Sequence record: PQ341120.1
Direction: 5' to 3' (one strand)
DNA: 64,000 bases
DNA from: Escherichia phage EAWsc9
Below the pieces are notes generated by a model. That model ran no database searches and was not told the DNA's origin. It saw nothing but the letters and a program-made list of their open reading frames with translations. Shown one piece after another: positions 33,596 through 59,288 of the stretch. Made by a program: the position numbers and the translations under genes. How positions within the stretch are numbered: the stretch's first letter is position 1; every line of letters begins with the position of its first letter.

Positions 33596-33609
33596 CCCTT
33601 TATGGAAAA

Positions 33610-33635
33610 TAAAAAAGGGACTCCGAAGAGTCCCT
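33610..33635 (-). terminator. Terminator after the 53-aa basic ORF
   Basis: GGGACTC-TTCG-GAGTCCC followed by TTTTTTATTTT on the minus strand. Confidence 0.65.
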
Positions 33636-33639
33636 GAAC

Positions 33640-33801
33640 TTATGCTTTCGGCTTACCAAAGCAAGCTGCATCGGCACGCAATACCGCACGAGCACGAGCC
33701 TGAAGTTTATCAGTCACCTGATTGATTCGCTTGTTGGACGCACGCTTGTAACCAGCGCGTTTGGAGGAGCCATCAACAACTTTAACTTCTTTCTTAGCCA
33801 T
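33640..33801 (-). CDS. Hypothetical small highly basic protein, about 53 aa
   Basis: Hand-translated (MAKKEVKVVDGSSKRAGYKRASNKRINQVTDKLQARARAVLRADAACFGKPKA); AAGAGA RBS; followed by a hairpin plus T-run terminator; coordinates +/-2. Confidence 0.4.
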   Translation of the reverse strand: MAKKEVKVVDGSSKRAGYKRASNKRINQVTDKLQARARAVLRADAACFGKPKA

Positions 33802-34199
33802 ATTAAATTCTCTTTAAAATAGAATGCAGGACTTATTGGCATTGCCTGCGCAAGCCCTCGAAGGGAACATTAGGTTTCGGATATTTAACGACAGGATAAC
33901 CATAAACCTCGTCATCATACCTTATAGCTCTTATCTGTTGCACACCGTTAGCTTAAAGGTTCCGGGTTCGATTTCTCGAGGATAAGATATATACTGATGG
34001 ATATATAGGCCTTGAGGCGTACTCCCGATTGGCCATCACCTCGGGGTAGCATGCACTTGCCGCTATAAGAATAACATTCAAGAGGTACACCGTAAAATTG
34101 CCGGGGTCTTAAAACTATAATGATTCGCAAATCATTAATCAGACGGTTCGACGGCTCCTCGATTTTCTAGCCGCACTAAGGTAGCGAATCACCTACAGC

Positions 34200-34454
34200 T
34201 TACTTCAGGGTTACGACAAAATGGCGAACAGCTTTACGGGCAGCAGATGCCAGCGGCTTAGCAAATTTCAGTTCATCTTTTGCTTCGAGCACTGCGCGAA
34301 GGTCGGTTTGAACCGGGTTAAGATGTTTGAAATACTGCAGAATTTCCAGTGCTTCGGCTTCAACATCAATAGATGCGCCGTAGTTTTCGTGACCGTTATT
34401 CCATGCAGTGCGTTGCAGTTCGAGAGCGTGTTGTAATTGTTTGTTTAAAGACAT
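34200..34454 (-). CDS. Hypothetical protein, about 84 aa, at the position of T4 rIII
   Basis: Internal ATG (MSLNKQLQ...) with GAGG RBS; lies directly downstream of gene 31 as rIII does in T4; identity not confirmed. Confidence 0.55.
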   Translation of the reverse strand: MSLNKQLQHALELQRTAWNNGHENYGASIDVEAEALEILQYFKHLNPVQTDLRAVLEAKDELKFAKPLASAARKAVRHFVVTLK

Positions 34455-34597
34455 TTTAGAAGCCTCAATATGAGGTGAATATTTGGTGGACACGTTCTTC
34501 TGAATTTCACTTCCTTTCGGCAAGTCTCTCAGTTGTAGTCCACCGTTTAGGATTAGCTAACCCCATACACCAGCAAAGCTCTGTATGACATCAACCA

Positions 34598-34605: not shown

Positions 34606-34625
34606 TATTATTTATAACGCTAATT

Positions 34626-34973
34626 TTACTTATAAAGACAAGGAACGGCTTTATAATGACAGGTCACAAATTTTTGCTTAACTTCTTTAGCCTGCTTAAG
34701 CCCCAGAGCAACCAGAGGATGTGGAACGTTTGCAATCTTGCCAACCGGAAGAGGAGTCAAATCACCTACTTCGCAGAATCCTTCAGGAACATCCGGACCA
34801 ACCGAAAATACTTCACACATCTCCGGGATTTCACCCTGATGGAGTTTTCCGATAACGATGCCTGATGCCGTAGTTTCTTCATCACCAGCTTGCTTTGGCT
34901 CAGAAACCAAAATAATATATTCACCTACTGCTTTAATTGGTAATTCCATATTTAATCCATGTTGTTTGGTCAT
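34626..34973 (-). CDS. 31: Co-chaperonin (GroES-like) for capsid folding, 115 aa (alternative start at 34949)
   Basis: LPI.AVGEY.ILVSEP.QAGDEE...HYKA.PCLYK matches T4 gp31. Confidence 0.9.
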
Positions 34974-58125: not shown

Positions 58126-59256
58126 ATGGAAAAATTTATGGCAGAGTTTGGACAAGGATACGTCCAAACGCCAGTTATATCAGAAAATAATGCCGTTAAA
58201 TTTAAAATGAGTATAGCAGGGAGCTGTACTCTTTCCACGGTGAAATCGTATATCAAATTTCAGGATGAACGAATTGGACCAACTACTTTTGGTAATGGTC
58301 TGACTCTATTGGAAATTGATACAACTACGAATAAAATTGTTAACACGAAAAACTATTCATTAACTAGCACACACGATGCAATCAGTCAGGCATTAATCAC
58401 CTTTGTGGAATCTGTTCCAGCCGGAAGATTGATTGCTTTTATTTCTTCAGGGAAACTAAATGCATCACAGACATTAATTGATTGGTTCCGTAAATGTGGT
58501 TCAAGAGCATTCCCGGAGAAATGGCTGATTGATAAAGTTGATACATCGTACTCGGCCTTTTATATAACCGGCCGGAATGTAATTGTTTCGGAGCATGTTA
58601 AGTATAATGACGGGAAGTTAGTTGAGGATGTTTCGACTCCGCTTGAAGTCATTTATGATACCTTTAGTGATATAGGAGCAACAGGCTATCCTGTACGCAT
58701 AACGGAAGACGAGAGCACGTATTCATCAACAGGTGATGGAACATCAACCACAATTAAAAGGTTCCCCACAGAGGACCTGGTGACTCCTATGGACACCTAT
58801 AACCTTTTACCTTTGGATGTGCTTTACTTGAAGTTTCAGATGTCATTTGACGCTGCACTGAAAGCTGCGGGGACCGTAAGGACTTCGATTCGATTCTTTA
58901 AAAGCCCCAGCACTTCTCCGATATCAAATACGAACATCGATATTGCAGCAAACGTTCCTGCCGGGGCTTGGGCGAGTTTCGAAAGATATGTCGAGATTCC
59001 GCCAGGAGCTGATGGCTTTACAGTAGTAACATCAAGAACTGTAGCTACCGGAACTGGGTCAATACGCAATATTGTTATTGGTGAGATAACCAGAGGTGAC
59101 TCGGCATTCAAACCAGCTGAATTTGGTGTCAACGGCATAAGGATGTCATATGCAAACGATACAACAAATACAGGCAATACAATTGTAACATTCCCGGATG
59201 CACAAGCTCCGAGAGCCGGCAAGATATACGCAGCCGAACTACGAGAAAAACAATAG
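58126..59256 (+). CDS. 35: Long tail fibre hinge (knee) protein, 376 aa
   Basis: Size and synteny with T4 gp35; AAGAGG RBS; terminator follows. Confidence 0.9.
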   Translation: MEKFMAEFGQGYVQTPVISENNAVKFKMSIAGSCTLSTVKSYIKFQDERIGPTTFGNGLTLLEIDTTTNKIVNTKNYSLTSTHDAISQALITFVESVPAGRLIAFISSGKLNASQTLIDWFRKCGSRAFPEKWLIDKVDTSYSAFYITGRNVIVSEHVKYNDGKLVEDVSTPLEVIYDTFSDIGATGYPVRITEDESTYSSTGDGTSTTIKRFPTEDLVTPMDTYNLLPLDVLYLKFQMSFDAALKAAGTVRTSIRFFKSPSTSPISNTNIDIAANVPAGAWASFERYVEIPPGADGFTVVTSRTVATGTGSIRNIVIGEITRGDSAFKPAEFGVNGIRMSYANDTTNTGNTIVTFPDAQAPRAGKIYAAELREKQ

Positions 59257-59279
59257 GACTCTTCGGAGTCCTTTTTTCG
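59256..59279 (+). terminator. Terminator after gene 35
   Basis: GGACTC-TTCG-GAGTCC followed by TTTTTT. Confidence 0.75.
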
Positions 59280-59280
59280 T

Positions 59281-59288
59281 TATAAATA
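59281..59288 (+). promoter_or_regulatory. Late promoter TATAAATA for gene 36
   Basis: Exact motif directly after the terminator that follows gene 35. Confidence 0.6.

Follow-up and report, generated by a model that had tools for sequence, protein, structure and literature searches.

A covarying four-way-junction RNA between rIII and gene 30.9 of T4-like phages of enterobacteria

The genes rIII and 30.9 of Escherichia phage EAWsc9 (sequence record PQ341120.1) are separated by a 398-nt gap, which occupies positions 33802-34199 of the 64,000-nt stretch of DNA analysed here (the window) and extends from the rIII stop codon (34200-34202) to the ATG of gp30.9 (33801). All local genes are carried by the minus strand. 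At the centre of the gap we identified a discrete 149-nt element on the same strand (33921-34069), hereafter the core, in which an 8-bp helix closes a four-way junction. That the core is a genuine RNA structure under selection is, in our judgement, highly likely. Sequence comparison portrays it as an RNA family with a wide distribution among the T4-like phages of enterobacteria; it has been deleted from T4, and smaller covarying modules surround it. The overall explanation that we favour, and regard as probable rather than secure, is a new autonomous structured non-coding RNA that would be excised from the rIII-30.9 transcript and act in trans.

An initial annotation of this DNA had described the gap as a hairpin-rich non-coding island of about 400 bp, and had considered a structured RNA, a DNA-level element and decayed genes as its possible nature. 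Its hairpin content does not exceed chance: relative to dinucleotide shuffles, the minimum free energy (MFE) of the whole island has a z-score of -0.03 on the minus and +0.76 on the plus strand. The hairpin content of one sequence is thus not significant, and significance has to come from comparison, that is, from conservation and covariation. An alignment (A1) of 33 distinct core copies from approximately ten lineages was assembled from GenBank phages, IMG/VR and metagenomes. In the proposed structure, helix P1 closes a junction with three further arms: P1b followed by an internal loop and P2; P3; and P4, which carries P5 and P6 (Table 1). Since P1, P1b, P3 and P4 abut without any unpaired linker, the four-way junction is a perfect one. 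When alignment A1 was projected onto this structure, 94.0% of the cells were paired and two-sided changes were found in 26 of the 43 pairs. The covariation score was 0.317, compared to 0.118 +/- 0.008 for shuffled alignments, none of which (0/500) reached the former value. In a control in which the 3' partners were slid by 1-3 columns, only 26-44% of the cells remained paired and the scores were 0.035-0.065. RNAalifold, which was given no structure beforehand, arrived at the same helices, with compensatory changes in 24 of 41 pairs. The MFE fold of the window core alone also has this architecture, with z-scores of -1.96 on the minus and -0.87 on the plus strand.

The variants illustrate how pairing is maintained. 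P1 reads UUUAUAAGC/GCUUAUAAA in phage Moon, CAUAUUAC/GUAGUAUG in EcS1, AUCGUAG/CUACGAU in phiEap-3 and AUUAG/CUAAU in JC221. In P2, GCUAC/GUA-C-GC is replaced by GACAC/GUG-C-UC in EcL8g, and CCCGA/UCGGG by CGGAU/AUCCG in EcS1, while P3 occurs as UAUAUA/UAUAUA, UAUACA/UGUAUA, UAUUCA/UGAAUA and UAUGUA/UACAUA. G-U or U-G pairs are present at several positions of the core and would become A-C mismatches if read on the opposite strand; covariation and these wobble pairs together assign the RNA to the minus strand. The internal loop of the second arm is conserved (AAGKGCAU / CUNANG, 8x6), and the P5 loop is of the GNRA type (GAAA or GUAA) in most lineages and non-GNRA in lineages carrying the core near uvsY (see below). 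Invariant columns make up 67% of the junction and internal-loop positions of A1, 30% of the paired and 33% of the hairpin-loop positions. Such a pattern would be expected if the helices scaffold a conserved tertiary or binding core. AAGKGCAU, GCUAAC and GUGCAAC are among the invariant strands.

All four stem-loops singled out in the initial annotation are present on the minus strand. Two of them, CCCGA(12)TCGGG at 34024-34045 and the AT palindrome at 33988-34007, belong to the covarying core as P2b and P3, respectively, whereas TAATGATT-TGCG-AATCATTA at 34118-34137 and CGGCT(12)AGCCG at 34152-34173 lie outside of it. The centre of the island is structured, but the island is not a single unit of 400 bp; it consists of the 149-nt RNA and smaller modules that are reordered among phages. 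The evidence for a structured non-coding RNA on the minus strand is strong both for the central ~150 nt and for two or more of the flanking modules: compensatory helices beyond those of shuffled and slid controls, the generic sign of a structured RNA, were found in the core and in the modules motif B and hpA, described below.

Approximately 1000 phage records match parts of the gap, and at least 80% of it is covered in only 178. The core is carried, as a single copy per genome, by 410 of 50,697 phage records; these phages, of many genera, infect Escherichia, Shigella, Klebsiella, Enterobacter, Citrobacter, Serratia, Yersinia and Edwardsiella. Over its central 135 nt (33928-34062), identity amounts to 95.6% with Klebsiella phage TNG87 and to 93.3% with Edwardsiella phage PEi20, compared to 74.6% and 69.8%, respectively, for the flanking rIII and ~82% for gene 30.9. 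Conservation above that of the adjoining protein genes would mean strong selection on a function of the RNA. BLAST searches with the core revealed no second place in T4-type genomes, and covariance model (CM) R1 gave no score in 83 pattern-matched, unrelated viral loci. A 16-mer scan of metagenome and genome collections returned mostly chance matches, only T4-like contigs passing a second-motif filter, and two gapped-pattern scans of viral contigs added two more core variants. In Enterobacter phage SonariX, a gp31-rIII-core-30.9 block typical of ~170-kb-type phages, with a core identical to that of the CIP9/Karamvirus type, is found in a record of 248.7 kb, which suggests a chimeric or concatenated assembly.

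The core resides between rIII and 30.9 in Gaprivervirus, Dhakavirus, some Tequatrovirus, Karamvirus, Kanagawavirus, Kagamiyamavirus, Muldoonvirus and Klebsiella T4-likes. It is missing from T4, T2 and RB32, which are among the phages with which a comparison had been suggested, and CM R1 detected no copy in the loci of these three phages, of LZ or of Phapecoctavirus. In T4, the flanking modules and the 30.9 leader are present and ~157 nt are missing, the break falling exactly at the P1 boundaries of the core. RB32 has kept the 30.9 leader and gene and lacks both the core and the adjacent module C. In T2, the place of the core is taken by 45 nt that are unrelated or possibly a remnant (~1019-1063 of locus L005, aligned to window positions 33915-34072). 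Two strings therein, GCGTCAGAAAAGTG and CTGTGTAAG, loosely resemble the 5' and 3' ends of the core, which suggests, tentatively, the remnant of an internal deletion rather than an empty site.

A second genomic context was found in three lineages, represented by Yersinia phage JC221, Citrobacter phage Citrof4 (Pseudotevenvirus) and Enterobacter phage phiEap-3 (Slopekvirus), where the core occupies the interval from uvsY.-2 to the convergent uvsW.1, downstream of uvsY and on the same strand as that gene. These copies score 116-124 bits with CM R1; their P1, P2, P3, P4 and P5 sequences differ from those of the rIII context, and their invariant junction strands are identical. The existence of this second locus means that the core is not tied to gp30.9. 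A TATAAATA-like string just upstream of the core in phiEap-3 was considered as a promoter and dropped, because a start there would exclude the covarying 5' strand of P1.

A different reading sees in the gap a DNA-level element or evolutionary debris: a PeSL-like cassette for recombination, a site of replication or packaging, or what is left of a lost gene or mobile element. The region is hyperplastic, its modules being present, absent or reordered among relatives and phage SP18 having an extra gene nearby, and the second core locus adjoins uvsY, next to which the T4 origin oriF lies. The PeSL/PmSL cassettes of T4-like phages, in which an early promoter is combined with a stem-loop and which are repeated many times per genome, are documented shuffling sites (Arbiol et al. 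2010, PMC2839356; Comeau et al. 2014, PMC4122927). Like the gap modules, they are conserved intergenic elements of hyperplastic regions with indels and module shuffling. However, no sigma-70-like promoter was found on the minus strand within 33802-34199, so that the defining promoter of a PeSL is missing, and the gap modules, the terminator excepted, have no second copy in the 64-kb window. Identification of the gap with a PeSL cassette was rejected on these two grounds; the core moreover differs from PeSL/PmSL by its single copy and by RNA-type covariation in a complex fold. Selection on RNA is indicated by the strand asymmetry and by compensatory changes that include G-U wobbles, and these features speak against the protein-binding, replication or packaging element of the initial annotation, and debris would not exceed the flanking genes in conservation. 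The DNA-level reading is thus largely refuted by the conservation and covariation of the core, and we consider it very improbable.

The coding capacity of the gap is limited to five short mechanical open reading frames (ORFs) of 34-60 aa, none of which matches a PHROG or Pfam family, in agreement with the absence of a convincing ORF reported initially. In public records, ORFs of 34, 36 and 60 aa have been annotated as coding sequences (CDSs) in pEC-M719-6WT.2, U115, T2, TNG87 and others. CDSs overlapping window positions 33917-34130 appear in OL362041, PP445228, OR539218, OR539220, MZ753803, PV648363 and PV402692, labelled 'hypothetical protein' or, in four records, '1,4-alpha-glucan (glycogen) branching enzyme'. 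The notion that such small proteins are indeed encoded finds some encouragement in a peptide-like string, YDDEVYGYPVVKYPKP, which recurs in TNG87. Nevertheless, each of the six frames of the core contains stops in several lineages. The 'peptide' region coincides with hairpin hpA, in which T4, T2 and RB32 have 1-nt indels that move a bulge from one strand to the other, breaking the frame and keeping the pairing; in EcS1 there is an in-frame stop just upstream of the hpA region. The string YDDEVYGYP, 3' of the core, was rejected as a peptide for the same reason: it is hpA, its substitutions are compensatory and its indels preserve pairing, not frame. We give the small-protein reading next to no credence, and the CDS annotations over the core are almost certainly spurious. 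A conserved coding frame with homologues in relatives, or an alignment of the gap to genes degraded by frameshifts, would contradict a structured RNA, and neither was found. Decayed genes are further opposed by the lack of any frame open across lineages, by indels that preserve pairing and by the absence of protein family matches. Based on sequence comparison, the gap appears to be a mosaic of conserved RNA modules rather than of decayed genes.

The core matches none of the known RNA families with which it was compared. ARAGORN detected no tRNA or tmRNA gene in the whole 64-kb window. A tRNA-like reading of plus-strand GGTTCGAT strings was discarded, given this empty result and the placement of the RNA on the minus strand by covariation and G-U pairs. 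Rfam 15, with its 4227 models including riboswitches, ribozymes and phage motifs, gave zero matches in the window at the gathering score; at E<=10 there were two weak, terminator-driven matches, both outside the gap. The core sequences of JC221, phiEap-3, EcS1 and PS2 likewise yielded no Rfam 15 match. The orphan structured RNA motif sets of Weinberg et al. from 2010 and 2017 are reportedly included in Rfam. The searchable literature contains no mention of the core or of its conserved strings, and papers on T4 transcriptomics and on PeSL are silent on it. The core is therefore a new RNA family relative to Rfam 15 and the searchable literature. It resembles the orphan structured-RNA motifs of phages (Fremin et al. 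2023, PMC10690425) in being defined by intergenic conservation and covariation and in its unknown function.

Several smaller modules surround the core, and their order differs between lineages. Motif B, a small H-type pseudoknot, displays in 23 distinct sequences 91% paired cells and compensatory changes in 3 of 7 pairs, with stems of the form RGG(U)/(A)CCY and UCRC/GYGA. Klebsiella and Edwardsiella phages have it immediately ahead of the core, JC221 immediately behind it. Its ~35-nt consensus, AGGUGAKUCRCUACCUUAAGUGYGAAGUURAAAU, has no Rfam match and is shared by T4-like phages with rV5-like (Phapecoctavirus, CR3), Vequintavirinae, Acinetobacter and Vibrio phages; the carriers unrelated to T4-like phages are Phapecoctavirus, Cronobacter phage CR3, Serratia phage ChuuTotoro, Acinetobacter phage PhT2 and Vibrio phage R16F. 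Outside of the rIII-30.9 gap (copies at L034 903-940, L364 501-537, L366 501-535, L398 3603-3625 and L374 5271-5292), motif B is usually located between or just upstream of tRNA genes of the same strand, and in no fewer than six loci two such genes flank it directly. Motif B may represent an undescribed RNA-maturation signal. It is reminiscent of the preQ1-I aptamer (which motif B alone resembles) in its length of ~30 nt, its two short H-type stems and the A-rich tail that follows. In contrast to that aptamer, it is unmatched by the Rfam preQ1 models, its loop 3 (UAGU) is not A-rich, and it sits between tRNA genes, whereas preQ1 aptamers are found upstream of queuosine genes.

The remaining modules are supported to different degrees. 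The covariation score of hpA is 0.524, compared to 0.128 for its control; the hairpin lies 3' of the core in the window and upstream of it in Klebsiella phages. All lineages, in either genomic context, have hairpin hpD (GUACCC-loop-GGGCUUG) 3' of the core. The UAAUGAUU-UGCG-AAUCAUUA hairpin is invariant, so that its pairing escapes a covariation test. The 5' arm of the CGGCU..AGCCG hairpin overlaps the 3' strand of motif B stem 2, and of the two motif B is the better supported; the hairpin is also weakened in T4. The 3' part of module C (34087-34137), with the 8-bp hairpin followed by ACCCCGG..ACGGUGU, resembles the P5-P6 half of the core, in which a hairpin is followed by ACCCGG..ACGGUGU; this likeness could reflect a partial duplication, or chance.

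RNase E cleaves at the consensus RN|WUU, which the AAG|UU-type AU-rich tail of motif B resembles, and in T4 the RNAs rnaC and rnaD are freed from tRNA precursors by host RNases. We envisage that the core is transcribed within an rIII-to-30.9 message, from the late-promoter consensus at 34609-34616 to the terminator at 33606-33635, and that it would act as an autonomous RNA, not as a regulator of gp30.9. Host RNases would cut at the flanking modules, namely at motif B with its AAGUU/AU-rich tail, hpA and hpD would protect the ends, and the core would be released from the polycistronic transcript as a stable RNA. The freed core could bind a specific protein or a small ligand via its invariant junction surface and thereby serve an accessory function in host takeover or counter-defence, one that T4 would have lost. 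A trans-acting stable RNA is favoured by the two unrelated loci, by the identical 30.9 leader of T4, which lacks the core, and by the bracketing of the core by motif B. We rate an autonomous or trans-acting rather than cis-regulatory core slightly above even chances, and its excision as a stable species somewhat below them. The counter-defence or host-takeover role, suggested by the accessory, patchy distribution that is also seen for such functions in T4 hyperplastic regions, is speculative. A bolder possibility, rather unlikely in our view, is that the core belongs to a previously unknown class of functional RNA in the T4 superfamily, i.e. a self-processing ribozyme or a decoy or sponge against a host factor or immunity, which would be matured via motif B and would have been overlooked because T4 deleted it.

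If the core were instead a self-cleaving ribozyme or a dedicated processing element, cutting the polycistronic transcript of rIII-30.9 (or of uvsY), its intergenic position on the strand of its neighbours, its patchy, accessory occurrence and its size of ~150 nt would be accounted for, and so would its association with motif B, a motif of tRNA-processing contexts. The natural hairpin and the four-way twister-sister ribozymes are four-way junctions of similar size, and their arms, like those of the core, contain conserved internal loops that could dock. However, the core has neither a covariance-model match to such ribozymes, nor known catalytic core sequences, nor a candidate cleavage site that could be named, and no Rfam ribozyme model matches it even at E<=10. 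Known self-cleavers are broadly distributed and multi-copy, whereas the core is single-copy and confined to enterobacterial T4-like phages. Judged from sequence, a ribozyme is quite improbable.

The opposite alternative to a trans-acting RNA is a cis-regulatory leader, a riboswitch or protein-binding operator whose junction senses a ligand or a protein and controls the translation or stability of the next ORF, be it gp30.9 or a small ORF near uvsY. Aptamers typically have the architecture seen here, a multi-helix junction that P1 closes and whose junction nucleotides are invariant. In the rIII context the core is always upstream of a small ORF of the same strand, small ORFs follow it in most contexts, including those of JC221 and phiEap-3 (see below), and gp30.9, being small and very basic, could itself bind RNA. 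On the other hand, the core is separated from the 30.9 start by 115-130 nt with other conserved hairpins intervening, and T4 and RB32 retain the same 30.9 leader and gene without it. Furthermore, Citrof4-type phages have the core but no ORF before the terminator, there is no evident terminator or Shine-Dalgarno-sequestering alternative to P1, the riboswitch models of Rfam fail to match either the window or four divergent members, and the two genomic contexts are unrelated. Cis-regulation is improbable on this evidence.

Several observations weigh against an autonomous, selected RNA as the full account of the core. The independent lineages are few (~10), most rows of the alignment are near-identical and the effective sequence number of the CM is 1.44. 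The absence of any variation in P1b, and in all but one of the five pairs of P6, means that these provide no covariation test, and the whole island, with z-scores near zero, is not thermodynamically unusual. The transcript ends, stability and processing assigned to the core are those we infer. Its cross-genus identity could be due in part to recent horizontal transfer, and not to constraint alone. Antisense targets of the conserved loops beyond chance were not found in the window, nor did the core sequence match any of 5,426 E. coli genomes. A small ORF does lie downstream of the core here (gp30.9). Near uvsY, JC221 and phiEap-3, two lineages out of three, have a conserved frame of 27-30 aa that lacks annotation (..LLRRPxEFTFGxVIDxIPSxKG*; L028 ~1310-1400 and L032 ~1085-1175) and follows the core and hpD; Citrof4-type phages are devoid of it. 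These frames leave some weight with cis-regulation of a downstream small ORF. In an exhaustive search of column pairs for additional tertiary contacts, any signal was obscured by co-variation of phylogenetic origin that separates the two context types.

The closest parallel in T4 itself is provided by rnaC and rnaD (species 1 and 2 RNA), non-coding RNAs of 120-140 nt and unknown function. Their size and T-even-type setting are like those of the core, and they are produced from polycistronic transcripts matured by host RNases, while the core travels with a motif of tRNA arrays. Unlike the core, they are encoded in the tRNA cluster of T4, which has both of them but not the core. No similarity in sequence or structure was found by inspection and folding (rnaC has a tRNA-like T arm and neither RNA forms a four-way junction), and homology of the core to rnaC/rnaD was therefore rejected. 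A further structural parallel is the GNRA tetraloop/11-nt receptor (CCUAAG...UAUGG): P5 ends in GAAA or GUAA in most lineages, and the loop beside P2 reads CAUG / CCU(C)AAG, which recalls the receptor. The receptor sequence is, however, non-canonical and the P5 loops are non-GNRA in uvsY-context lineages; a contact of this kind in the core is a tentative lead.

The phage from which the window derives is a T4-like myovirus and belongs to the SP18/VR7 (Gaprivervirus) type. In the 1.1 kb that surround the gap, it shares 99.9% identity with Escherichia phage pEC-M719-6WT.2 and 97% with Shigella phage SP18. The initial annotation had contrasted the gap with neighbouring genes that overlap by 1-8 nt. 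The immediate spacings are in fact 115 nt (30.8/30.9), 171 nt (rIII/31) and 31 nt (31/31.1), so that the rIII-30.9 gap is the longest but not unique in kind; the strong terminator described 3' of gp30.9 is indeed present. Judging from established knowledge of T4, TATAAATA upstream of rIII probably functions as a promoter. The stem-loop of the gp30.9 terminator (33612-33633) recurs ~25 kb away in opposite orientation at 59256-59277, with 95% identity over 22 nt, and adjoins another TATAAATA at 59281-59288. SP18 carries an extra gene, 30.6A (116 aa; 1628-1978 of its locus), between 30.8 and 30.9. The gene is absent from the otherwise 97-98% identical window (near ~33613), which constitutes another indel in the same hyperplastic stretch. 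The rIII leader (34485-34544, minus strand) contains a long hairpin, GGUGGAC...GUCCACC, in the 5' untranslated region of the gene. A homologue with a compensated stem, GGGAGC...GCUCCC, is found in the gp30.9 leaders of Klebsiella phage TNG87 and Enterobacter phage PG7 (L008 ~1120-1190 and L010 ~1149-1196), and one leader module thus serves different genes in different phages.

Table 1. Features of the rIII-30.9 region of the window, listed in the direction of transcription.
Feature	Position	Strand	Remarks
gp31	34626-34973	-	gene upstream of rIII
TATAAATA, T4 late-promoter consensus upstream of rIII	34609-34616	-	exact match
rIII, lysis-inhibition accessory protein	34200-34454	-	upstream gene; annotation of 99.9%-identical record and translation
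Motif B, H-type pseudoknot AGGU-GAU-UCGC-U-ACCU-UAGU-GCGG	34171-34194	-	directly 3' of rIII stop codon
Motif B including AU-rich tail	34161-34194	-	covariation
CGGCU(12)AGCCG hairpin	34152-34173	-	no support beyond window sequence; T4 has AGCU..AGCC
8-bp hairpin UAAUGAUU-UGCG-AAUCAUUA	34118-34137	-	identical in T4, T2, SP18, Ge15, U115
P6-like hairpin ACCCCGG..ACGGUGU, 3' end of module C	34087-34107	-	seen in sequence
Core four-way-junction RNA	33921-34069	-	CM R1 match 33917-34072, 185 bits, sole match in window
P1, 5' strand CUUAUAGC	34062-34069	-	pairs with GCUAUAAG at 33921-33928; two-sided changes in 8/8 pairs
Arm 2 (P1b, internal loop, P2)	34008-34061	-	P1b GGC/GCC, 34059-34061 with 34008-34010
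P2a and P2b hairpin	34017-34050	-	includes CCCGA..UCGGG; two-sided changes in 6/10 pairs
P3 hairpin, AT-rich palindrome	33988-34007	-	100% paired; two-sided changes in 3/6 pairs
Arm 4 (P4 enclosing P5, P6 and invariant strand GCAAC(A))	33929-33987	-	covariation
P4 UCUUAUC/GAUAAGA	33981-33987 with 33929-33935	-	5/7 pairs compensatory
P5	33968-33979	-	3/3 outer pairs compensatory (UCGA, CCGA/UCGG, CUGA/UCAG, CAGA/UCUG)
P6 ACCCG/CGG-U-GU, conserved 15-nt loop	33942-33967	-	one compensatory pair (C-G to U-A, uvsY-context lineage), others invariant
hpA hairpin GAC[G]AGG-UUUAUGGUUAU-CCUGUC	33890-33913	-	7 sequences, 93% paired, 4/6 pairs compensatory
hpD hairpin GUUCCCU-UCG-AGGGCUUG	33851-33868	-	one compensatory variant (PS2 CCUC/GAGG)
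hpE hairpin GCAGG..CCUGC in 30.9 leader	33826-33849	-	seen in sequence; conserved in T4, T2
gp30.9 ribosome-binding region and ATG	33799-33815	-	ribosome-binding site annotated at homologous U115 site
gp30.9, 53-aa basic protein	33640-33801	-	phrog_1427, E 2.9e-26, function unknown; named gp30.9 in SP18
Intrinsic terminator 3' of gp30.9	33606-33635	-	8-bp stem, UUCG loop, U tract

No large virulent phages have been studied better than the T4-like ones, which are also in wide use in phage therapy. The core has nevertheless remained absent from Rfam and from the searchable literature and is routinely mis-annotated, though carried by hundreds of the phage records searched. Since T4, T2 and RB32 are devoid of it, natural comparisons of a nearly isogenic kind, as well as simple knock-in and knock-out experiments, are possible. 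For RNA structural biology the core offers a new fold, a four-way junction without linkers. Finally, its link to the pseudoknot of tRNA arrays points to what may be a shared, hitherto undescribed RNA-maturation signal in large phages.

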